IMG/VR virus record: IMGVR_UViG_2579778993_000003
Direction: 5' to 3' (one strand)
Source: a virus
Taxonomy: Duplodnaviria; Heunggongvirae; Uroviricota; Caudoviricetes
DNA length: 24,908 bases
Below, in pieces: positions 1-13,625 of this stretch. The notes under the pieces are model-generated. The model worked only from the letters and a program-made list of their open reading frames with translations, had not been told where the DNA came from and made no database searches. How positions within the stretch are numbered: position 1 is the stretch's first letter; the number at the start of each line of letters is the position of its first letter. A program made the translations under genes and the position numbers.

Positions 1-721
1 CTGGCGTCAGTTGTTACGGGAAGGAATCAGGGTGGCCAGATGTACAGTGGCGCGCCTCATGGCGGTTATGGGACTTGCCGGTGTTCTCCGGGGTAAAAAG
101 GTCCGCACTACCGTCAGCCGGAAAACCGTTGCCACAGGTGACCGCGTAAACCGTCAGTTCGTGGCAGAACGACCTGACCAGCTGTGGGTGGCTGATTTTA
201 CTTACGTCAGCACATGGCAGGGCTTCGTCTATGTGGCGTTTATCATTGATGTGTTTGCCGGATACATCGTGGGGTGGCGGGTCTCATCGTCTATGGAAAC
301 GACATTCGTGCTGGATGCGCTGGAGCAGGCGTTGTGGGCCCGTCGTCCGTCTGGCACCATCCATCACAGCGATAAAGGCTCTCAGTATGTGTCACTGGCC
401 TATACGGAGCGACTAAAAGAAGCCGGATTACTGGCATCAACAGGGAGTACAGGCGACTCGTATGACAACGCGATGGCTGAGAGCATCAATGGTCTTTACA
501 AAGCGGAGGTAATACACCGTAAGAGCTGGAAAAACCGTGCAGAAGTGGAACTGGCCACACTAACGTGGGTGGACTGGTATAACAATCGACGATTGCTGGG
601 AAGGCTGGGCCATACTCCTCCGGCAGAAGCAGAAAAAGCTTATTATGCTTCCATCGGAAACGATGATCTGGCAGCCTGAGTTCACAGATAAAACACTCTC
701 CAGGAAACCCGGGGCGGTTCA
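1..721 (+). mobile_element. IS3-family insertion sequence, right-hand part (element continues upstream of the window); right terminus at 721
   Basis: Transposase OrfB occupies 2-679. Sequence 678-721 (gagttcacagataaaacactctccaggaaacccggggcggttca) is the reverse complement of a TGAACCGCCCCGGG... terminal inverted repeat that I recall for IS629/IS3411-type IS3-family elements. The left end is outside the window, so length and target-site duplication cannot be checked. Confidence 0.7.
2..679 (+). CDS. IS3-family transposase OrfB (DDE integrase catalytic domain), 5'-partial at window edge
   Basis: The track ORF 11..679 begins at a TTG, and the frame is open back to position 2, so the true N-terminus lies upstream. 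The translation carries IS3-family OrfB hallmarks (WVADFTYV, HSDKGSQY, GDSYDNAMAESINGLYKAE). Stop TGA at 677-679, immediately followed by the terminal repeat. Confidence 0.85.
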   Translation, partial: WRQLLREGIRVARCTVARLMAVMGLAGVLRGKKVRTTVSRKTVATGDRVNRQFVAERPDQLWVADFTYVSTWQGFVYVAFIIDVFAGYIVGWRVSSSMETTFVLDALEQALWARRPSGTIHHSDKGSQYVSLAYTERLKEAGLLASTGSTGDSYDNAMAESINGLYKAEVIHRKSWKNRAEVELATLTWVDWYNNRRLLGRLGHTPPAEAEKAYYASIGNDDLAA

Positions 722-2530: not shown

Positions 2531-4387
2531 TTATGATGATGCTGGTGCATTTATCTCCAGCACCAGACTTTCTATCTCAACGCCATACGCTGCATTTTTG
2601 GTAATATCCGTCAGCGTCAGCGCATTCAGCCCCAGTGTCAGACTGTCTTTTATGACCTGGAATGCCGGGCCAGCCACTCCATTCAGTTTCGGAGTAACCG
2701 TGGCACTGCCGGCGGTGAACACCAGCTCCAGCGTCTGCCAGTCGTTACTGTAATTCCCGAACTCGCCCAACTTTGTGTTTCCTGCTTTCCTGTGATGCAT
2801 CAGATTCAGTTTGCCGTCTGTGGTCTGGGTGAAGAACGACATCAGGAACGGGTTACCAGTCCCGGTCATCGCCACGACGTCAGGTAACGCTACATCGGTA
2901 TACAGATAAATTCCCAGACCGAACTGGTTGTTGGTCAGTGCGCCTGACAGTCGAAACTTACAGCTCAGTCTGCCACCCCGTGTCAGCAGGGAGACTGCGT
3001 CATCCACCGGATGCATCAGGGACCAGGTTTTATTGCTCTGCTTGGTAACCTTAAACACACCATCTTCCAGCGCAACACTGCCGCCGGTGATGGTCCAGCC
3101 CTGCGCAGCAGCCTCTCCGGCTGTCGGCAGCAGGGAGACTGTACGAACGGATGTGTCACCATCAGACGGCCCCGATGGCGTGTCGCCGCCGGGCGAGGGT
3201 TTAATCTCCGGTGCGGTACCGCTGATGAAGGCGCTGGTTCGACCAACTGCGTTCAGAATAGCGGTTGCCAGGCGATCCGAAATAATGCCCCTGCGCGCCC
3301 ATGAACTGAAATGTGTCGGACGATTTGACGATACCCAATTACCATTACTACGGGATTGCGCGCCGTAATAACCTGCATCAGCAATATCCGGGTCTTCTGC
3401 CGGTAAGTTGGTGGGCGTGTTGTTGCCGTTACCGTCGGTCATGAACGGCACAAAGAAAACGTTGTCGCTCTCCCTGTTTTTGTACGCGCCGTAGACGGAG
3501 TCATACTGTGTGCCGTATGTGTTTTTCCAGTAATACGTCGTGTCGCCACAAATCCACGGTACAACTGCAGCACTGCCGCCATGGCACTGCGCCGCCAGCC
3601 CGGCAAGGTCAGCACGGAACTGCTGTACCATTGCAAGAAATGCTGCTGGCTGCTGGGCGTAACTGGCATTCGTCATATCGAATTCCCCCTGCATCCAGCA
3701 TATCGCCAGCAAAACGTTTTTCGGGTTTTTCTGCAATGCTGCCTTCGTGCGGAAAAGCAGATCCTGATATAATGGTTTACCCACACCCCAGCGTGCCGAA
3801 TCCTGGCTGGCCCCCGTGTCCGCACTGAATGTCCCCTCCGCGCCCTGGGTGAATGCCGAACCACCACGACAGCATGGTACCAGCAGGATCCCCGCATTAT
3901 TAGGGATATACGGAAGCAGTTTTTTGGCAATATGTAAGCCCTGTCCGACACAGCCGTACTGCCCTTTGCTCAGGTCAGCCCGGGGATGGTTAATCGTACT
4001 CATATCCTGAACATCATGCAGACAATGGTCAGCAGGAATGATGTCGTTAAATACGCATACTTCACCACCGGGAGTCACTGTGTTACGACGGGCCAGTTGC
4101 TTAATGCGCGGATGGGGCGCATCGTATGAATCCGGAAGCGGAAGCCCTTCACCGTAAGCCATGGCATTGGACTGCCCGGCCAGTACGATGACGTAGTACC
4201 ACTCCGGCTCAGTTGCACCACTGACGACCACATCACCTTCTGCTGCAATCGCCTGCATCAGGGTATAAGGGGTTATGGCCACCGGACTACCAAACGGCTG
4301 CCAGCCCTCTTTCAGTTTATGTGTCAGCTTTTCCGCAAGATCTGACGGCGACGCCGCCCTGACAACATCATAGTGTTTAAATGCCAT
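2531..4387 (-). CDS. Prophage sialate O-acetylesterase-like protein (NanS-p-like; SGNH/SASA hydrolase with extra N- and C-terminal domains), 618 aa
   Basis: Contains the esterase motif LAGQSNAMAYGEG (GQSN catalytic serine block) after an N-terminal ~60-aa domain (MAFKHYDVVRAASPSDLAEKL...), plus a long C-terminal beta-rich region. It sits between the tRNA/stx slot and the holin, the position of NanS-p genes in Stx-type prophages. Confidence 0.7.
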   Translation of the reverse strand: MAFKHYDVVRAASPSDLAEKLTHKLKEGWQPFGSPVAITPYTLMQAIAAEGDVVVSGATEPEWYYVIVLAGQSNAMAYGEGLPLPDSYDAPHPRIKQLARRNTVTPGGEVCVFNDIIPADHCLHDVQDMSTINHPRADLSKGQYGCVGQGLHIAKKLLPYIPNNAGILLVPCCRGGSAFTQGAEGTFSADTGASQDSARWGVGKPLYQDLLFRTKAALQKNPKNVLLAICWMQGEFDMTNASYAQQPAAFLAMVQQFRADLAGLAAQCHGGSAAVVPWICGDTTYYWKNTYGTQYDSVYGAYKNRESDNVFFVPFMTDGNGNNTPTNLPAEDPDIADAGYYGAQSRSNGNWVSSNRPTHFSSWARRGIISDRLATAILNAVGRTSAFISGTAPEIKPSPGGDTPSGPSDGDTSVRTVSLLPTAGEAAAQGWTITGGSVALEDGVFKVTKQSNKTWSLMHPVDDAVSLLTRGGRLSCKFRLSGALTNNQFGLGIYLYTDVALPDVVAMTGTGNPFLMSFFTQTTDGKLNLMHHRKAGNTKLGEFGNYSNDWQTLELVFTAGSATVTPKLNGVAGPAFQVIKDSLTLGLNALTLTDITKNAAYGVEIESLVLEINAPASS

Positions 4388-4580
4388 GAATCCTCCCGGC
4401 CGGGATAATATTGTGAGTAAAATGAGGAGCGGGCTGAAGTCCGGAAGTTACAGGACAATGGCAGAAGAGAGACAACAGCCCGCAATACGAAAAAGGCCGC
4501 GCTATTGCGCAGAGTGATTACTGTCGGATATTATTCGCCAGCTGAAATATTACTTCACGTTTTATTGTTTATTCCTTGCC

Positions 4581-4609
4581 GCCCGCGTCTCCCAGCGCGG
4601 GCTTTTTTT
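4581..4609 (+). terminator. Plus-strand intrinsic terminator
   Basis: Stem gcccgcg (4581-4587) pairs with cgcgggc (4596-4602) around an 8-nt loop, followed by T7 (4603-4609). The T-tract is only on the plus strand, implying a plus-strand transcript ends here, antisense to the late operon. Confidence 0.55.
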
Positions 4610-4616
4610 GCCCACA

Positions 4617-4850
4617 AGAAAACCCCTCCGGAGAGGGGCTAAAGCCGCGTATCTGTATCATCATGCACATGGTGCCGGGTGCCTCCCGGTGAGTTCAGCC
4701 CGGTGCCACTAAACCCGCGTCATTCTCGTTTTGATAATCAGAGATTATACCGTCACCAGTCGCCCCTCCGCTCAGGGGGATTCACCATGCGAAATTTTTT
4801 TAACAAATGCCCAGTCTGACAGGCAACTGTCAACTTACTGAATTGTGAGC
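4617..4850. repeat. Direct repeat unit A (~230 bp), degenerate copy of unit B, rich in palindromic hairpins
   Basis: Shares ordered conserved blocks with 5105-5318: aaaa(c/g)ccctccggagaggggct, gcatggtgccgggtgcctcccggtga, cccctccgc.cagggggattcaccatgc, ttttaacaaa and cagtcaac...ctgaattgtgag. The first block is a perfect 6-bp hairpin (CCCCTC cgga GAGGGG, 4623-4638) preceded by an A-run, so it is a minus-strand terminator. Confidence 0.6.
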
Positions 4851-4875
4851 AACATAGCATTTAACGGGGAACCTG

Positions 4876-4903
4876 TTTTCTGCAGTAAAAAGGCCCACCG
4901 GAG
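4876..4903 (-). terminator. Minus-strand intrinsic terminator between the two repeat units
   Basis: Hairpin GGCCCA (4882-4887) / TGGGCC (4898-4903) around a 10-nt loop, with a plus-strand A-run at 4877-4881 giving a T-tract on the minus-strand transcript. Confidence 0.5.
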
Positions 4904-5104
4904 CGGATGGGCCTGGAAGGATAGCGGTCATGTGATGCCGGTTTCCCGGTAACTCAGCACCGGTATCTGAGTCAACGTTTTCTCTACTGGGTCATTTCCG
5001 ATACGCCCTGCCTGCTGACAGGCTTTCATCACATCTGAAAATATAGCACCCTGACTGATACTGTAGTACCTAAGGTTCCAGAAACTGTGATGTATCCGGC
5101 ACAG

Positions 5105-5318
5105 AAAAGCCCCTCCGGAGAGGGGCTGGAGAGTGGCGCTATGTGCCATTGCATGGTGCCGGGTGCCTCCCGGTGAATTCAGTACCAGCACCTGAATCCG
5201 CGATTATCCCATATACCTACTCGCTGATTGCCCCTCCGCACAGGGGGATTCACCATGCCAGTTTCTTTTAACAAACTCCCCGCAAACCAGACAACAGTCA
5301 ACCGCCTGAATTGTGAGA
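5105..5318. repeat. Direct repeat unit B (~215 bp), degenerate copy of unit A
   Basis: Same conserved blocks as unit A, including the CCCCTC cgga GAGGGG hairpin (5110-5125) and the 8-bp inverted pair gcatggtg / caccatgc bracketing a variable ~110-nt core. Confidence 0.6.
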
Positions 5319-5323
5319 CATTT

Positions 5324-5347
5324 AAAAAAAAGCCCGCAAAAGCGAGC
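5324..5347 (-). terminator. Minus-strand terminator-like hairpin directly after the tRNA cluster
   Basis: Plus-strand A8 (5324-5331) then gcccgc aaaa gcgagc (5332-5347); on the minus strand this is an imperfect 6-bp hairpin followed by T8. Confidence 0.45.
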
Positions 5348-5362
5348 CAGTGAAAATAAGTG

Positions 5363-5439
5363 TGGCGCGTTGTACTGGATTCGAACCAGTGACCGATTGC
5401 TTAGAAGGCAATTGCTCTGTCCGGCTGAGCTAACAACGC
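5363..5439 (-). tRNA. tRNA-Arg (anticodon UCU)
   Basis: Manual cloverleaf on the minus strand: acceptor GCGTTGT/ACAACGC, D-stem GCTC/GAGC, anticodon stem ATTGC/GCAAT with loop CTTCTAA, T-arm ACTGG-TTCGAAT-CCAGT, discriminator G and encoded CCA. All stems perfect; 77 nt. Confidence 0.9.
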
Positions 5440-5452
5440 AGGATACAGATAA

Positions 5453-5529
5453 TGGACCGCCTTCGGGGACCCGAACTCCGCGCAACCAGCTTCGAAGGCT
5501 GGCGCTCTTTCCTGATGAGCTAATGGCGG
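5453..5529 (-). tRNA. Putative tRNA-Arg (anticodon UCG), slightly degenerate
   Basis: Cloverleaf fits with D-stem GCTC/GAGC, anticodon stem CCAGC/GCTGG with loop CTTCGAA, and encoded CCA. There is one mismatch in the acceptor stem (A-A), one in the T-stem (A-C), and an atypical T-loop TTCGGGT, so it may be a diverged or pseudo tRNA. Confidence 0.55.
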
Positions 5530-5536
5530 TATGTGA

Positions 5537-5612
5537 TGGTGGCCCTTGCTGGATTTGAACCAGCGACCTGGCGATTATGAGTCGCTCGCTCTCACCACTG
5601 AGCTAAAGGGCC
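5537..5612 (-). tRNA. tRNA with CAU anticodon (Met by anticodon; resembles the Ile2/lysidine-type ileX/ileZ class)
   Basis: Minus-strand sequence GGCCCTTTAGCTCAGTGGTGAGAGCGAGCGACTCATAATCGCCAGGTCGCTGGTTCAAATCCAGCAAGGGCCACCA folds as a 76-nt cloverleaf with one A-C mismatch in the anticodon stem. It closely resembles E. coli ileX as I recall it. Confidence 0.85.
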
Positions 5613-5661
5613 GGGAGCAGAATAATAATGGTGCGTAATTAATTCTGCAATCTCATCCGTT

Positions 5662-6711
5662 TCAAACGATTAAATCCTGAACTTCCCTGACTGTCTGCTC
5701 AAAACGTCCGGTCTCCAGCTCAACACCAATCGCACGACGCCCCAGTGCCATCGCCGCTTTTACCGTTGAACCCGACCCCATGAAAAAATCCGCAACCAGA
5801 TCACCAGGACGGCTACTTGCGCTGATTATCTGCTGCAGCATTTCTGCCGGTTTTTCGCACGGATGTTTCCCGGGATAGAACTGCACCGGTTTATGCGTCC
5901 ACACATCGGTATACGGCACCTGCACCGTCACGCCAAAATACCGCCGCAGATGTTTATATTCACTCAGCAGCTCCGCATACTGCCGGTTCAGTGAGGTATA
6001 CGTATCCACCAGCTGGTGGTGGAGCTTTTCCAGTTCACCACGCCGATGCTTCTCTTCTGCCACCCGGGCAAACAGCGCCTGTAATTTCAGATAATCGCTT
6101 TCATTCGGTAGCTGCCACTGACTGGCACTGAACCAGTGCGACACCATGTTTTTCTTTCCTGTGGCATCTGCAATCTGTTTTGCCGTTATCCCCAAGGCCG
6201 CGCGCGCATCACGAAAGTAAGAAATCAGCGGGGCCATCACATGCTGTTTCAGTGCACTGCCCTTCGCCGCATACCCGGCATCTTTCGGACGATACGGCCC
6301 CTGATAATGTTCCGCGAACAGAATGCGCTCTGTGGCGGGGAAATACGCCCGCAGGCTTTCCTTGTTGCACCCGTTCCAGCGTCCGGACGGCTTCGCCCAG
6401 ATAATATGGTTCAGCACACTGAAGCGTTCACGCATCATGATTTCGATATCAGATGCCAGGCGATGACCACAGAACAGGTAAAGACTTCCGGCAGGTTTCA
6501 GCACCCGCCAGAACTGCGCCAGACACTGGTCCAGCCATTTCAGGTAATCATCGTCGCCCTTCCACTGGTTATCCCAGCCCTCAGGCTTCACTTTAAAGTA
6601 CGGCGGGTCCGTGACTATCAGGTCAACAGAATTTTCGGGTAACGACCGGATAAATTCCAGGCAGTCGGCGTTGATTAACTCACAACTGGATATTTTTACA
6701 GTATTAAGCAT
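5662..6711 (-). CDS. Orphan DNA methyltransferase (amino-MTase, N6-adenine or N4-cytosine; motif order DPPY then FxGxG)
   Basis: 349 aa with catalytic motif IVTDPPYF near the N-terminus and the AdoMet-binding motif FFMGSGST near the C-terminus. No restriction endonuclease gene is adjacent. ATG at 6709-6711. Confidence 0.85.
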   Translation of the reverse strand: MLNTVKISSCELINADCLEFIRSLPENSVDLIVTDPPYFKVKPEGWDNQWKGDDDYLKWLDQCLAQFWRVLKPAGSLYLFCGHRLASDIEIMMRERFSVLNHIIWAKPSGRWNGCNKESLRAYFPATERILFAEHYQGPYRPKDAGYAAKGSALKQHVMAPLISYFRDARAALGITAKQIADATGKKNMVSHWFSASQWQLPNESDYLKLQALFARVAEEKHRRGELEKLHHQLVDTYTSLNRQYAELLSEYKHLRRYFGVTVQVPYTDVWTHKPVQFYPGKHPCEKPAEMLQQIISASSRPGDLVADFFMGSGSTVKAAMALGRRAIGVELETGRFEQTVREVQDLIV

Positions 6712-6804
6712 GGATCATTAAGCCTGTCTCTGATAGGCTCATTCTGCTTTTGCGCAAAGCAGTGGGCCTGAGGTTTGCTTGTGAACCCAACGCATGAGCA
6801 GATG

Positions 6805-6833
6805 GCTGGTGGGTGCCCCTAACACCCACCAGC
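6805..6833 (-). other. Perfect 11-bp stem-loop without U-tract in the 5' region upstream of the methyltransferase gene
   Basis: gctggtgggtg (6805-6815), loop cccctaa, cacccaccagc (6823-6833). No T-run on either side, so it is not a canonical terminator; possibly an RNA processing or stability element or a protein-binding site. Confidence 0.4.
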
Positions 6834-6845
6834 CGCCCATTTACC

Positions 6846-6875
6846 ACAAATAAAAAAGCCTTCACTGCGGAAGGC
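6846..6875 (-). terminator. Minus-strand intrinsic terminator (second terminator downstream of Q)
   Basis: Stem GCCTTC (6858-6863) / GAAGGC (6870-6875) with loop actgcg, preceded on the plus strand by A6 (6852-6857), giving a hairpin plus T-tract on the minus-strand RNA. Confidence 0.5.
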
Positions 6876-7059
6876 GTCTGTAACAACCGAACTGATAGTC
6901 TGCCAGACCCGCCATAACCAGCTGAGTCAGTATTAACTGGCAGCGTTCGCGTGAAAGGTAAGTATTCTGCGCAATCTCCCCGACTGTCGCCGGTTCGGTG
7001 ACGCTTAATTCATTAAACACCACTCTGGCGGTTTCTGTCATATCCTGCTGTTTTAGCAT
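6862..7059 (-). CDS. Hypothetical small protein (about 65 aa) between the Q-proximal terminator and the methyltransferase gene
   Basis: Internal ATG at 7057-7059 preceded by AAGGGA; the track ORF extends to 7146 but lacks support upstream. No motif recognised; low confidence that it is translated. Confidence 0.3.
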   Translation of the reverse strand: MLKQQDMTETARVVFNELSVTEPATVGEIAQNTYLSRERCQLILTQLVMAGLADYQFGCYRRLPQ

Positions 7060-7181
7060 GTCTTTTTCCCTTTTCCGGTTAACGTGACACACCAATAACT
7101 CTTGTCGAAAAAGCCAGCAAGCTGAAAGACAGGTATTCACCGCCACCAGCGCGTTTACTGTACTGACGCGATTTCAGTCAT

Positions 7182-7203
7182 AAAAAACCCGCCAGGCGGC
7201 GGG
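7182..7203 (-). terminator. tR'-like intrinsic terminator about 80 bp downstream of the Q gene
   Basis: On the minus-strand RNA: stem CCCGCC, loop GCCU, stem GGCGGG, then UUUUUU (plus-strand A-run 7182-7187, stems 7188-7193 and 7198-7203). Confidence 0.6.
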
Positions 7204-7252
7204 GTGTAAAAAATCTTCTAACGTCAGGCATAAAACGCCTATCGTTAGAGCA

Positions 7253-7280
7253 AATTTACCACAGATTCGGGAAAAATCAA
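7253..7280 (-). promoter_or_regulatory. Candidate late promoter (pR'-like) with expected Q-utilisation region
   Basis: On the minus strand, TTGATT (-35, complement of 7275-7280), a 16-nt spacer, then TAAATT (-10, complement of 7253-7258). It lies just downstream of the Q stop (7286-7288) and about 45-60 nt upstream of the terminator at 7182-7203, mirroring the lambda pR'-6S RNA-tR' layout. Confidence 0.4.
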
Positions 7281-7285
7281 CAACA

Positions 7286-8107
7286 CTATCGCGTTACCCT
7301 CTTTAACTGCCGCTCCGCCCATGCCTCTTCAATGTCAAACCGAACCACCAACGTATCGTAAAAGCGTTTCACTGATTTTTTCCACGTATCAAGCGTGATA
7401 GCACTCGTCACTTTGCGTATGGCATTAAATGCCTCCGTTGATGGTAGTCTTTCACAGCCACGACCACCACAACGCTGGCAGTCTCTGATAACAGGCATAC
7501 CACGTTTTACCGACTCTTCACGATGAATGGCAACACCACGCCCACGGCAGTCTTTACAGGCAGTGGAAATCTCCCCCTTCCCTTTACATTCAGGACAAGA
7601 AACTTTCACCACCTCCCGAATTTTTTTCCATTCTTCCCAGTAAGACGGATACACACCTTTCGTACACTTTGCCCATACTGGCGGCTTGCCATCCGGATAC
7701 TGAACCTTGTTTGTAAAAACTTCGCCTTCAATAAATTTTTCCCCTCGGCAACAGGGGCACTGCTTTTTACTCGCTGCGCTGCGGGCATAATCCTCAAAAG
7801 CGTACGAAGCCATAATGCGCATCACTACCGGTTTTATTTCTGCCGGAAGTTTTCTCAACGCCGCCACACGATCGCACCGACTGAGTGCATAATCTGCCAG
7901 TAATTCTGTTGCCCGCGCCCTGTCATTCATACTGATGCCCATTTTCCCCAGGAACGCAGAAAACCCCATCTCAGCCCGATTCTGTGTCATGCCCTGCGCG
8001 GCCATCACATCAGTGATACTCAGCGCATCTTTCGACGTTGAGGCCGATGCATCAGTCAGGCCGGGGGATTTTGGGGAGTAGTATTTCGGTAAATCTTCCA
8101 GTTTCAT
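7286..8107 (-). CDS. Putative late-gene antiterminator Q (Cys-rich, zinc-finger type), 273 aa
   Basis: Directly downstream of rusA with a 4-bp ATGA overlap, and followed by a promoter plus terminator pair. Contains repeated CxxC motifs (CPCCRGEK, CPECKGKGE, CKDCRGRG, CQRCGGRGCE). Family assignment rests on synteny and motifs. Confidence 0.6.
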   Translation of the reverse strand: MKLEDLPKYYSPKSPGLTDASASTSKDALSITDVMAAQGMTQNRAEMGFSAFLGKMGISMNDRARATELLADYALSRCDRVAALRKLPAEIKPVVMRIMASYAFEDYARSAASKKQCPCCRGEKFIEGEVFTNKVQYPDGKPPVWAKCTKGVYPSYWEEWKKIREVVKVSCPECKGKGEISTACKDCRGRGVAIHREESVKRGMPVIRDCQRCGGRGCERLPSTEAFNAIRKVTSAITLDTWKKSVKRFYDTLVVRFDIEEAWAERQLKRVTR

Positions 8108-8484
8108 TTTTTGACCTGCTCTTCATGCATTATGGGGTAAATCTTCACCCCCAGACGTCCACCAGATACTGGCTGACCACGAACGATATTGATTTCATCA
8201 AACTGCTCATCGTCCATTAGCAACCCCGCATGCGTCAGCGCATCCAGCGGCGCTTTCAGAATATTGTCCAGATCACGGCGGCGCTTATCCGGTGGTTCTG
8301 CAATAATTTTTATTGCCAACCTTCCGGACAGGCTTAATTTCAGCCGCTGCTGGCGAACAATAAGCGCCACTGCCCGGCGATAACGCTCCCCGGCTTTTGA
8401 TACAAAATATGTGCTGCCACGACGACGCCAGTAAGTGTTCACCGTTGGCGGGTAAGGCAAAACAAATTCTATGCGTTCAGTCAT
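8104..8484 (-). CDS. rusA: RusA-family Holliday junction resolvase
   Basis: 126 aa; the segments LPYPPTVNTYWRRRG and DKRRRDLDNILKAPLDALTHAGLLMDDEQ match the RusA fold and catalytic Asp cluster. Typical position in a lambdoid nin region just upstream of Q. Confidence 0.85.
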   Translation of the reverse strand: MTERIEFVLPYPPTVNTYWRRRGSTYFVSKAGERYRRAVALIVRQQRLKLSLSGRLAIKIIAEPPDKRRRDLDNILKAPLDALTHAGLLMDDEQFDEINIVRGQPVSGGRLGVKIYPIMHEEQVKK

Positions 8485-9543
8485 TTATGCTTTCCACTTC
8501 AGAACACCCGAATTTCTCGCGTGCATTAAAAAACGAATCAGCAACAACAGCTGGCTGCCGTGTTTTTCTTCAAAATCTTTTACCCCGGCGTGTAGTTCGC
8601 TATGGCATTTACGGCACAGCGGAATAACAAACAAATCATCAGCCTTTGTTCCCATCCCTCCCAGTCCATGACCAATGATGTGATGCGGATCATCTGCCTG
8701 ATTGCCACACGTCATGCATTTCTGCGTTTTTACCCAGCGCGTGTATACAGGCATCTCTTCCCGTTGTGATTTCTGGCGCTGGAGATACTGAGCCGGTGAC
8801 TCGGGATCAACGGCAATGCTGACCACCGTCTTTTCCTGTGGTGGGTTCTGTTGCTGGTGGGCGTGAGGCAGCGGCGCAAGATTTTTTGTGCGCTGTTTCA
8901 GTATGCTGGTGGCGGTCTGCTCTCCCGGTATGATGTCGCTTTCACTGTACACAGAGCGAATTTTTTCCGCACGCAACCCCAGCGAACGACGTAATACCGC
9001 TTCCGGTAGCGCGTCCGCCACCTGATTGCGGACCGCCCACCAGGATAATTCAGCCAGAGATAATTCACGCTCCTGCGTACCGCTTATTGCGTGACCGATG
9101 ACGTCAATCATCCATGCTGACAGGTTTTGATGAGCAAGTTGCCCGAGTGATTCGGATGTCTGGTCACGCAGCTGGTTGTCGCAGTGCCAGCACAACACCA
9201 TTGCGCCGGTACCATAACGGTGAATGACGGTTTCGCTGTGATGATAATCGCCGTGTGGCCACTGGCAGGATTTAATATGGCGCAACAGCCAGTCAGACAA
9301 TGCACCAGCACCACCAGCAGCACGAATCACCCGTGCGTTACTGAAAAACGGCAGCAATGTTTTGTCTTCCACCAGCGGCTGGCGAGCGGCAGGAACGACC
9401 CCGGACGGCAGATTACGCATGCTTTTTGGTTCCGGCTCCACCAGTATTCTGCCGTTATGGAATGCTGACATTGATTCACGGCCTGGCTTAACGATAACCA
9501 GACCGAGTTCCGGTACCAGAACAGATCGAAGTAATACCCGCAC
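8485..9543 (-). CDS. DUF968-type prophage protein with C-terminal HNH-like zinc-finger nuclease motif (YdfU-like)
   Basis: The C-terminus CMTCGNQADDPHHIIGHGLGGMGTKADDLFVIPLCRKCHSELH has the Cys/His spacing of HNH endonucleases. The start is ambiguous: GTG at 9541-9543 has a strong SD (GGAGG), and an alternative ATG lies at 9469-9471. Confidence 0.65.
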   Translation of the reverse strand: MRVLLRSVLVPELGLVIVKPGRESMSAFHNGRILVEPEPKSMRNLPSGVVPAARQPLVEDKTLLPFFSNARVIRAAGGAGALSDWLLRHIKSCQWPHGDYHHSETVIHRYGTGAMVLCWHCDNQLRDQTSESLGQLAHQNLSAWMIDVIGHAISGTQERELSLAELSWWAVRNQVADALPEAVLRRSLGLRAEKIRSVYSESDIIPGEQTATSILKQRTKNLAPLPHAHQQQNPPQEKTVVSIAVDPESPAQYLQRQKSQREEMPVYTRWVKTQKCMTCGNQADDPHHIIGHGLGGMGTKADDLFVIPLCRKCHSELHAGVKDFEEKHGSQLLLLIRFLMHARNSGVLKWKA

Positions 9544-10231: not shown

Positions 10232-12496
10232 TTATACGGAAACTGGCACACGAGCAGGCAATGGATAGTGAGCCCAGTTATTAGCATTTAAAGCTCTTAC
10301 GCCATCAGCATAAACTTGTGTTTTTCCATCTAATGATTTTAAAGTTACTACAATAGTTACAGGTAAAGGCTCCATTAAGGCCGGTTCATTCGCTCTCAAC
10401 GTTGTTTTAGCTTGAAGAGCCCAGTTACCCGAAGTAATTCCTTTATTAAATGCCTTGCGATGAATTTTTACTGGTGACCACTTTCCACCATGCTCAATTT
10501 GAGCTCTCTCATATCCAGATTGACCGTTTTCTCCTTCCATAGGTACTTTTCCTTTTATAGTATTATTCTCAATTAAGCCAAAACTTAGCTCTACGTTCGC
10601 GCGAACATATTCACTGCCGGCATTAGGGTTCAGTGGTGGTGCATATGCAGCAGTAATTACAATCTCACCTTTAAATTTTCCATTTTGAATAAGTGCCGAT
10701 GGTATGGGATAGTTTTCCTTTCTCCACCTCACCCCAGGAACCAAGAATGTTTGGAAAATCAGAGTAAACCTATCATCACTATCATATAAGGTCTCAATAA
10801 CCTCATTAGGAATTCCCGCTCCCAAATAGCGTCTTTCACTTGGCGAGTAATCAGGAGAAGATAATTGAGCGGAATGAATTAATAATGCTTTAATCAATGA
10901 TGGTGAAACATTAAAGTCTGAATTAGTGGCTATTCTCTGCCATGTATGCGCAGCTAAACTTGCCACAATTGGAGCAGCAAAACTAGTACCAAAATTAGAG
11001 CAAAGCCTATTATCTGGCCCTACGACCTTTAAACTGCTTGCTCCTACATTCCAAGGTCTATGAACCCCACCGCCAGCATGGATTATATCTGGCTTTGGAG
11101 TAAATACAGGCCCAGGGCCACGACGAGTATATGGTGTCGGTGTTCCAATTTCACTTAAAGCATCATTAGCTTCCATATGAGAAACTGAACCAACTGTTAG
11201 TGCTCGGACTGACTCTCCAGGAGAGGAAATTAAATCAGCACCTCCAAGCGGATCAGGATTTGGCCATGTACGTATAGGTTCATCTACATAATTACCTGCA
11301 GCAACTACAAACAAAATACCAAATTTATCGCTGAGCCGATCTAACTCCATCGCAAAATCACTAAACATCTGCTCATTACATGGTCCGCCTCCCAAAGATA
11401 AATTCCAGACTTTTATATCTGGTCTTTTATTTACAGCATCTGCTAGCCTCAGAATTAAATCTGATATATAAGATCCATTTTCATCTAAAGCACAAACATC
11501 ATGGATTTTAGATTTTGTATCAGGAATCCATGGATGATTGTCATTTAAAAAATGAGCGCCTGATATCAATGAAGACACCATAGTCCCATGTTCATAACTC
11601 GTATCAGGAGGAATTACGTATGTTTCCCTACTCACTACCCAAGGAGTAATTGTTGCCGCGATGGGGCTTACCCCAGTGTCAAATACAGCAACAATGGGTA
11701 ATTCTTCTGATGGTACGGGAAAGCTATTTGTTTCAATGCCAACAGAATCACTTACACTAACCGGGAATGCTGAATATTTTGGTTCTGGAATTAACGTTCT
11801 TATACCCGGGTAATCAATGAGAATGTCTAATATATATCTATCATTTGGGGATAAATCCATTATCCTTAATAAGGGAAGACCACATTTTGGTCTAATCTCA
11901 TCATATTTAACTCCGTGTTGTTCTAATATAGAAATAACGTTTTCATAGTTGTTGTAAGTTGCATCTTCACCTGTGTACTCAAATAGTCGTACAAGGATGT
12001 TTGATGATTCAAACAAACCATCAGTGCCTCCTGGAACCTTCCTATTCTCATCCCAAGGTTCAATGCGCTCAATCGCGCTTAGATTAGCCAAAATCGCTTT
12101 AATATTCCGATGTAAAATGACTGACTCTAATACGTCAAAACAGCCGGCATGAGCAGCAACCAACATTTCATCTATTTTGGCATGACCGGCATTTTGCAAT
12201 CCAGCCTCTTGAGCAATTTTGTTCGGCCTATGCGTTTTGGCTATTCCCTGGTCTCTTAATTTGAAAACCAAAGTACCCAAGCTTCCAGGGTACTCTGAAA
12301 GTTTGGATTCTAAATAATGTTTACTGGTTGTTAAATTTCTTACTAGCCCTTGTCTATATTCGGCTGTTACATCAACCAATACCTTTGCCCCACCGCCAGC
12401 GTTTACTATTGCACCCAAGTCACTACTGGAAAAAGGGATTCTTAACATTGGGTTTGTAACTTTTGCGTTACTAAACTGTGTACCCCTTCTGCTCAT
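10232..12496 (-). CDS. Subtilisin-like serine protease (peptidase S8) with extra N- and C-terminal domains, 754 aa; protease component of an IetAS-like two-gene system
   Basis: Catalytic residues in subtilisin order: Asp in VAVFDTGVS, His in YEHGTMVSS, oxyanion Asn in VVAAGNY, Ser in GTSFAAPIVAS. ATG at 12494-12496 with a GGAG/AGGAG SD inside the 3' end of the upstream ATPase gene (26-bp overlap). A+T-rich relative to neighbouring prophage genes. Confidence 0.9.
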   Translation of the reverse strand: MSRRGTQFSNAKVTNPMLRIPFSSSDLGAIVNAGGGAKVLVDVTAEYRQGLVRNLTTSKHYLESKLSEYPGSLGTLVFKLRDQGIAKTHRPNKIAQEAGLQNAGHAKIDEMLVAAHAGCFDVLESVILHRNIKAILANLSAIERIEPWDENRKVPGGTDGLFESSNILVRLFEYTGEDATYNNYENVISILEQHGVKYDEIRPKCGLPLLRIMDLSPNDRYILDILIDYPGIRTLIPEPKYSAFPVSVSDSVGIETNSFPVPSEELPIVAVFDTGVSPIAATITPWVVSRETYVIPPDTSYEHGTMVSSLISGAHFLNDNHPWIPDTKSKIHDVCALDENGSYISDLILRLADAVNKRPDIKVWNLSLGGGPCNEQMFSDFAMELDRLSDKFGILFVVAAGNYVDEPIRTWPNPDPLGGADLISSPGESVRALTVGSVSHMEANDALSEIGTPTPYTRRGPGPVFTPKPDIIHAGGGVHRPWNVGASSLKVVGPDNRLCSNFGTSFAAPIVASLAAHTWQRIATNSDFNVSPSLIKALLIHSAQLSSPDYSPSERRYLGAGIPNEVIETLYDSDDRFTLIFQTFLVPGVRWRKENYPIPSALIQNGKFKGEIVITAAYAPPLNPNAGSEYVRANVELSFGLIENNTIKGKVPMEGENGQSGYERAQIEHGGKWSPVKIHRKAFNKGITSGNWALQAKTTLRANEPALMEPLPVTIVVTLKSLDGKTQVYADGVRALNANNWAHYPLPARVPVSV

Positions 12497-13625
12497 ATGC
12501 TCCTGACTCCTTCAGAATGTTTGAAATTACTCTTGATGTAAGTTTGTACAAATTAGCAAGAACTCTGATAGAAAATAATTTTTTATCTTTAGAACGTAAC
12601 CAACGAATTTCATCTTCGTAAGTGCTTAAATTTACACCTTCCATAAGCGATTGCGCAAGATACAAACGCCTATACAATTTATGGTGATTTATCACACTTG
12701 CACCTTCAATAACTGCATCCCTACGTGCATCCAAGCTCACCTGTTCAATTATTGCTCCGGATAATCCCTCCGATTTTCTTGATAAATCACTTAAATCTAG
12801 ATCGCTACATATCATATTCTTTAAACGATTTTTCCAAATTAACTCTCTCTGATGTATGTCAGGCAGAGGCATTGGAATTCTGAAGCTAAATCGCCTCCAG
12901 ATTGCAGGATCCAGAAGTTGCTCATGGTTAGTTGAGGCAATAATTACCGTATCCTCTGATGCCGCATCCATATTCTGCAATAGTGAAATGACAACTCGCT
13001 GAAGCTCACCTATATCTCTCTCATTACCTCTTGCTCCAGCTAAAGCATCAAATTCGTCTAAAAAAAGCACTGATGGCCTCTGCATTACATAATCGAAAAC
13101 CTGTCTAAGATTTTTGCTGGTTTGTCCCAATAAACTACTAATCAAAGTATCGCAACGCACTGTAAGAAGTGGAAAATCTAAGCGGGTAGCGATGTACTTA
13201 GATAACATAGTCTTACCTGTTCCTGGCTTTCCATACACGAGCATACGACTCGGCAATGCTGCATCAGCTTTAACAAACTCATCATAACGTTGAACATTAG
13301 TGATAAACTCTTCAACACGGGTACTGATTGCTGCAGGCAGAAAAATCTCTGAACTGTCTAATTTAGGATAACTGACATCAACAGTGTTGAGTCGACTATC
13401 AATATCTACCGGTAATGAGCCCAGAGATATCCCACCTCCAGCCCTTTGAGCTCCTGCCAACGCCTGGGGAGCTCTAAGCAACCTTTCTCTTATCATTCTG
13501 GCTTGCTTGACCTCCCCTTTTTGTTCGAGCTTATCTGCCAGCAACCCAGCATAATTACTAGCCATCGAAGCATTTGCCTTTGTTGCACCTTCAATGATTT
13601 TTAACACTTCTGATAAATAATCCAT
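12471..13625 (-). CDS. Classic AAA-family ATPase, 384 aa; ATPase component of an IetAS-like two-gene system
   Basis: Walker A GKPGTGKT, Walker B VLFLDEFD, and a second-region-of-homology-like segment ASTNHEQLLDPAIWRRFSF with sensor Asn and Arg fingers. ATG at 13623-13625 preceded by GGGAG with a 6-nt spacer, after an AT-rich ~190-bp leader. Confidence 0.9.
   Translation of the reverse strand: MDYLSEVLKIIEGATKANASMASNYAGLLADKLEQKGEVKQARMIRERLLRAPQALAGAQRAGGGISLGSLPVDIDSRLNTVDVSYPKLDSSEIFLPAAISTRVEEFITNVQRYDEFVKADAALPSRMLVYGKPGTGKTMLSKYIATRLDFPLLTVRCDTLISSLLGQTSKNLRQVFDYVMQRPSVLFLDEFDALAGARGNERDIGELQRVVISLLQNMDAASEDTVIIASTNHEQLLDPAIWRRFSFRIPMPLPDIHQRELIWKNRLKNMICSDLDLSDLSRKSEGLSGAIIEQVSLDARRDAVIEGASVINHHKLYRRLYLAQSLMEGVNLSTYEDEIRWLRSKDKKLFSIRVLANLYKLTSRVISNILKESGAYEQKGYTV

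Follow-up and report, generated by a model that had tools for sequence, protein, structure and literature searches.

An M.EcoGI/M.EcoGII-type adenine methyltransferase gene, probably non-specific, placed as cargo in the late transcription unit of a lambdoid prophage

What does a DNA methyltransferase without a restriction partner do among the late genes of a lambdoid prophage, and does its sequence tell which sites it modifies? The question arises at positions 5662–6711 (minus strand) of a 24,908-nt viral DNA (IMG/VR record IMGVR_UViG_2579778993_000003, Caudoviricetes; hereafter, the window), where an intact ORF with an ATG start encodes a protein of 349 amino acids. The initial annotation delimited this gene correctly, leaving out its strand, and described the product as an amino-DNA methyltransferase with DPPY first and FxGxG last. 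This description is borne out by the motifs and by profile searches. DPPY occupies residues 35–38 (nt 6609–6598) and FMGSG residues 310–314 (nt 5784–5770), so that a (D/N/S)PP(Y/F) motif IV lies N-terminal to the SAM-binding FxGxG motif I, with the target recognition domain (TRD) in between, as in β-class amino-methyltransferases. The Pfam domain N6_N4_Mtase (PF01555) covers residues 29–340 (E = 4.3e-43; 148.2 bits for a cut-off of 26.7), and the PADLOC Type II methyltransferase model PDLC03265 matches the full length of the protein (E = 5e-166), both of them far more significant than chance matches would be. Solved structures (9c3u/8urk, labelled 'Methyltransferase', and the β-class enzymes M.RsrI, CcrM and M.MboIIA) can be aligned with it in two conserved blocks only, residues ~8–114 and 281–340, which suggests that the family-specific insert of ~170 residues between them is the recognition region. 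Judged by its sequence, the product is thus a β-class amino-methyltransferase.

Full-length comparison placed this protein with M.EcoGI and M.EcoGII, the latter a 349-aa β-class enzyme from an O104:H4 prophage described by Murray et al. 2018 (PMC5778455). Our reference for M.EcoGII was a machine-read sequence (PMC11551740, Suppl. Table S1) with three visibly corrupted spots (NHH for NHI, RRRA for RRA and TKVPQ for THKPVQ), which we corrected. The identity is therefore approximate: 331/350 to the raw text and 335/349 (~96%) to the corrected one. Two corrected versions had no exact match in the public protein collection, and the maximum identity to the corrected text among phage records was 95.1%. 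The catalytic segments (residues 1–134 and 279–349) show no difference at all from the corrected text. The ~14 differences fall within residues 148–278, which correspond to the linker and the four-helix recognition domain as delimited in PMC11551740; residues 148–254 (linker/TRD) account for 13 and position 278 for one. A second homologue, located by walking along the chromosome of E. coli EC958 (L004:1330-2379) and encoded by a prophage at ompW, is identical at 340 of 349 positions (97.4%), the nine substitutions being at positions 2, 212, 223, 230, 246, 249, 263, 321 and 346. From its position and product, it is presumably EC958_1545/M.EcoMV, which Forde et al. reported to be 99% identical to M.EcoGI (PMC4659465). 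Between this EC958 protein and the corrected M.EcoGII text there are 16 differences, in agreement with the 333/349 published by Murray et al. 2018 for M.EcoGI versus M.EcoGII (PMC5778455). Near-identity to these enzymes is thus colinear over the full length, recognition domain included, with an equal length of 349 aa, and the gene is likewise a prophage-borne orphan: 41 kb of context in the lambdoid prophage that carries it, integrated at ompW, include no restriction gene. On these sequence grounds, the locus is better labelled 'M.EcoGI/GII-type non-specific adenine methyltransferase' than 'orphan MTase of unknown specificity'.

For the activity of such a protein we drew on the literature on near-identical enzymes. 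M.EcoGII methylates adenine whatever the sequence context, in dsDNA, ssDNA, RNA and hybrids including DNA:RNA in vitro (PMC5778455), and both M.EcoGI and M.EcoGII have been reported to be non-specific N6-adenine methyltransferases (PMC5778455, PMC4659465, PMC6602927). An AlphaFold model of M.EcoGII has been published. A study of O111 strains listed homologues with 93% similarity as 'nonspecific', a REBASE-based prediction, and attributed no methylation to them in lysogens. Reconstructed ancestors with ~69% identity, equally distant from the window protein and from M.EcoGII, stay largely non-specific, which makes the gain of a motif through a dozen substitutions unlikely. Very probably, then, the window enzyme is a non-specific N6-adenine methyltransferase like its near-identical relatives, a judgement that we make jointly with the whole explanation of the gene as late cargo set out below. 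The initial annotation held that target specificity could not be read from the sequence, which is wrong in practice at 96–97% full-length identity, TRD included, to non-specific m6A enzymes. It also took the lack of any new methylation motif on expression as a refutation, whereas this is the outcome expected of a non-specific enzyme.

The most direct challenge to this assignment would be a sequence-specific orphan enzyme that owes a target preference to substitutions peculiar to this allele in its recognition domain. The clustering of the ~14 differences from M.EcoGII in residues 148–278 goes in that direction, as do R223 and L230, which among the five sequences compared occur in the window allele only (position 230 is a proline in every other homologue compared). 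Nevertheless, identity in the recognition domain is still ~92%, two enzymes with 16 differences between them, M.EcoGI and M.EcoGII, have both been reported as non-specific, and the ancestral variants remain largely non-specific at ~69% identity. We therefore give this hidden specificity only a slim chance.

The gene environment provided information about when a non-specific enzyme might be made. From position 718 to 24908, the window matches with 99.96% identity a lambdoid prophage that E. coli TUM14664 carries beside ompW. The genes follow one another on the minus strand in the order IetA/IetS, DUF968, RusA, Q, a 65-aa ORF, the methyltransferase, tRNA-Ile(CAT)/Arg/Arg, STnc100-family sRNAs, a SASA/NanS-p esterase, holin and lysozyme. 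The location between Q and the tRNAs, as initially proposed, is correct: the antitermination protein Q (273 aa, 7286–8107, minus; PF03589, E = 9e-51; phrog_127; 'antitermination protein' in RefSeq) lies upstream, and three phage tRNA genes (5612–5363, minus) lie directly downstream, namely Ile (CAT, ileZ-type, the CAT-anticodon tRNA being annotated as Ile by RefSeq), Arg (TCG) and Arg (TCT).

Several other features of this prophage deserve mention in their own right. The nin region carries as cargo an anti-phage defence pair composed of an AAA-ATPase and an S8 peptidase, IetA/IetS (IteA/IteS in RefSeq; 10232–13625, minus), recognized by PADLOC with E = 6e-300 for IetS and 9e-143 for IetA. Downstream of the tRNAs, the minus strand carries the STnc100 sRNA family (RF02076) in two to three tandem copies, two of them strong (4610–4819 and 5097–5287; 161 and 136 bits for a gathering score of 47) and the third weak (4885–5058; 30 bits). 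Each copy ends in a terminator, and direct repeats ~470–490 nt apart confirm the duplication. These copies fill the place that stx has in Stx phages, after the tRNAs and before the NanS-p esterase. At the edge of the window, positions 1–717 (ORF 11–679, plus strand) are a fragment of an IS transposase with an rve integrase core (E = 5e-28), and identity to the TUM14664 prophage ends at 718, ~220 bp from the lysozyme gene, indicating that in this prophage copy an IS element interrupts the lysis region. In the near-identical TUM14664 prophage, the portal gene (L002 5779–8039, beyond the window) is annotated as frameshifted and the methyltransferase gene is intact. With an IS-interrupted lysis region in the window and a frameshifted portal gene in TUM14664, the prophage may be defective.

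The sequence between Q and the methyltransferase has the elements of a lambdoid late leader. A scan for σ70 promoters on the minus strand from 4300 to 8200 called none; by eye, a putative late promoter pR' below the scan threshold (TTGATT, 16-nt spacer, TGgTAAATT; 7253–7280, minus) starts 6 nt past the Q stop codon. EC958 has this very sequence, whereas that of phage 1720a-02, with its other type of Q, is different. A tR'-like intrinsic terminator (CCCGCC-GCCT-GGCGGG plus TTTTTT; 7188–7203, minus; fold −12.6 kcal/mol) lies ~45 nt downstream of the putative pR'. A second intrinsic terminator (GCCTTC-loop-GAAGGC plus a T run; 6858–6875, minus; −8.9 kcal/mol) is found ~150 nt upstream of the methyltransferase start; in 1720a-02 its stem is kept and its loop replaced. 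Most Stx2 phages share exactly the segment of the window from 5325 to 7203, which ends at the first terminator, and in 1720a-02 the sequence upstream of this terminator is unrelated, homology starting at the terminator itself. This boundary marks the methyltransferase as part of a cassette (terminator, small ORF, terminator, methyltransferase, tRNAs) located behind interchangeable Q/late-promoter modules. Its position in a Q-dependent late unit agrees with the original claim that it is part of the late operon, Q read-through itself being predicted from the arrangement.

The small ORF of the cassette (65 aa, 6862–7059, minus; phrog_331; hypothetical in RefSeq) is located between the two terminators, the second of which overlaps its stop codon, and resembles TrmB/winged-helix proteins only weakly (E = 0.0026, which is under the cut-off). 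We considered it as an obligate partner or controller of the methyltransferase and rejected this role, given that 55 phage records contain the small ORF versus ~283 with the methyltransferase and that it is also present in phages SfV, mEp460 and cdtI. A hairpin immediately 5' of the start codon (6716–6741) was likewise rejected as a translational control element, as it is unconserved in EC958. The leader from the second terminator to the methyltransferase start also contains a perfect 14-bp GC-rich hairpin (6798–6836, minus; −28 kcal/mol, z = −5.0, no T run), kept in EC958 and with one change in 1720a-02, that could be a processing or stability element.

These observations, together with what is known of the near-identical enzymes, fit a simple scheme to which we attach high confidence: a late-expressed, non-specific m6A cargo enzyme, silent in the lysogen and acting against restriction. 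The copy of M.EcoGI/M.EcoGII in this lambdoid prophage would be a SAM-dependent non-specific N6-adenine methyltransferase carried as cargo where the late transcription unit begins, the order being Q, putative pR', tR'-like terminator, small ORF, second terminator, methyltransferase, tRNAs, stx slot, NanS-p esterase and lysis genes. As long as the prophage is lysogenic, transcripts started at the late promoter would halt at the terminators and the toxic enzyme would not be produced; silence and toxicity are both taken from the literature, M.EcoGII being unexpressed in the lysogen and deleterious once expressed (PMC5778455), and the architecture found here, with two conserved terminators on the coding strand between the putative pR' and the methyltransferase and no promoter called on that strand, is compatible with such silence. 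Upon induction, RNA polymerase modified by Q and made resistant to terminators would read through, so that the enzyme would appear late and methylate numerous adenines of the phage DNA that is being replicated and packaged. The progeny DNA, partially hypermethylated, would thereby gain partial resistance to the many restriction systems of Types I, II and III that m6A blocks. Two steps of this scheme are ones that we infer: read-through under Q at this locus, and the gain against restriction. The protection of progeny from restriction, already advanced in the initial annotation, agrees with the accepted rationale for the family, the benefit at this particular locus being likewise presumptive. 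Our literature searches found nothing on the biological role of M.EcoGI/GII-type methyltransferases in phage infection and no study on virion m6A or restriction evasion in phages of this family; a 2025 EcoSal review goes no further than listing M.EcoGII beside Mom among silent, toxic enzymes. A methyltransferase mentioned in a paper on an O157 Stx2a phage was rejected as evidence for this family, as it is a different, Dam-type gene. Furthermore, transformation of E. coli is 10^4- to 10^5-fold less efficient with plasmid modified by M.EcoGII, so that the benefit of heavy methylation is not obvious.

An enzyme expressed in the lysogen might instead serve as an epigenetic regulator of the Dam/CcrM/YhdJ kind, altering host gene expression as had been suggested for this gene. 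Its best NCBIfam similarities are indeed to the YhdJ-type and CcrM families. Nevertheless, the scores are far under the cut-offs (112.8 versus 292 for YhdJ, NF008572; 72.9 versus 830 for CcrM, NF050803), and with only the conserved catalytic blocks aligning to these two models, the protein is not an equivalog of either. Moreover, the gene is preceded by two terminators, constitutive expression is deleterious, and in lysogens the homologues show neither methylation signal nor transcript: close homologues are silent (PMC5778455), and the one in EC958 was inactive by RT-PCR in the work of Forde et al., who also described M.EcoGI as non-specific (PMC4659465). Altered host gene expression is thus unlikely in lysogeny, and we regard a regulatory function of this kind as very improbable.

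Returning to the late, anti-restriction cargo enzyme, its main natural substrate might not be duplex phage DNA but RNA or ssDNA present late in infection, such as late mRNAs or the adjacent phage tRNAs. M.EcoGII does methylate ssDNA, RNA and DNA:RNA hybrids in vitro, and the methyltransferase gene is always immediately 5' of phage tRNA genes. However, the initial rate of M.EcoGII on RNA is ~90-fold below that on DNA (0.12 versus 11.12; PMC11551740, Suppl. Table S3), and the linkage with tRNAs may merely reflect a common cargo slot downstream of Q. The probability that we assign to such a substrate is as low as that of the lysogenic regulator. A broader formulation, in which the enzyme acts in vivo beyond duplex phage DNA (on late RNAs, tRNAs or replication intermediates) or in which the level of DNA methylation is tuned as a general counter-defence, seems somewhat less remote, yet still improbable.

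As for a cognate nuclease, the annotation of the window and of the 41-kb context of the matching prophage in TUM14664 includes no restriction endonuclease; the only nuclease-like genes are a terminase-associated HNH gene and the nin-region DUF968/HNHc_6 protein. The gene is thus an orphan, as proposed from the start: the longer context in which an adjacent restriction gene might have come to light holds none, and the neighbouring cognate endonuclease gene that characterizes a Type II restriction-modification system is missing from the window and from the rest of the prophage alike. That the enzyme is nevertheless the modification half of a restriction-modification system with an unrecognised nuclease nearby is hardly credible: PADLOC places it among Type II methyltransferase models, the DUF968/HNHc_6 protein lies in the window (8485–9543) and an HNH gene adjoins the terminase in the matching prophage, beyond the window, but the 41-kb context is without any annotated restriction gene, the HNH gene is of the usual terminase-associated type, DUF968 belongs to the standard nin-region genes and has RusA and Q between it and the methyltransferase, a methylase lacking specificity cannot be paired with a site-specific nuclease, and the cassette recurs beside varied neighbours (stx2, sRNA repeats, IraM).

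As an element, the locus is nothing new: it has been well characterised and is very common. The exact window protein is encoded in at least 1000 contigs of a public collection, and the 90% cluster that contains it has 4845 members. Related DNA is present in 1978 of 5426 complete E. coli genomes (~36%), at up to six places per genome, and in 292 phage records, mostly of Stx2-converting phages, which for the most part have the same gene order. The enzymes of the M.EcoGI/GII family have been characterised and are a widely used reagent for chromatin footprinting. The significance of the locus as a discovery is accordingly small, and the useful outcome is its corrected annotation.

Among known systems, M.EcoGII of E. 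coli O104:H4 C227-11 (GenBank EGT69837.1; PMC5778455) shares with the window enzyme the length of 349 aa, the DPPY motif, central TRD and FxGxG motif, a ~96% identity (approximate, owing to the reference text) with both catalytic segments essentially identical, a prophage location and the absence of a restriction partner; what separates them is the set of ~14 substitutions in the window enzyme at residues 148–278. The M.EcoGI/M.EcoMV-type enzyme of EC958 (ST131, prophage Phi4; PMC4659465), with its 340/349 identical residues, also comes from the ompW attachment region and has in common the order Q, small ORF, methyltransferase, tRNAs, SASA esterase and holin, whereas downstream it has two tRNAs and IraM instead of the three tRNAs and sRNA repeats of the window. 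The 'DNA methylase' located between Q and stx2 in Stx2 phages (1720a-02, phiP27 and Stx2a/2c/2d phages) belongs to a cassette common with the window, of which the segment 5325–7203 has 87–94% DNA identity to Stx2a/2d phages and phiP27 and ~82% to Stx2c phages. Phage 1720a-02, named by Murray et al. 2018 as carrier of a very similar methyltransferase, was our second-best phage match, with the order Q–hypothetical protein–methyltransferase–stx2A; its protein is 3 residues longer and differs from that of the window at 18 aligned positions. These phages depart from the window in having stx genes after the tRNAs, where the window has none, and in an upstream Q/late-promoter module that varies from phage to phage. 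Finally, Mom of phage Mu and the Dam enzymes of T-even phages and P1 follow a common logic of late or induced expression, silence in the lysogen, toxicity in some cases (Mom) and broad action against restriction; yet Mom makes N6-carbamoylmethyl-adenine, the Dam enzymes are GATC-specific and α-class, and the sequences of all of them are unrelated or distantly related to that of the window methyltransferase.
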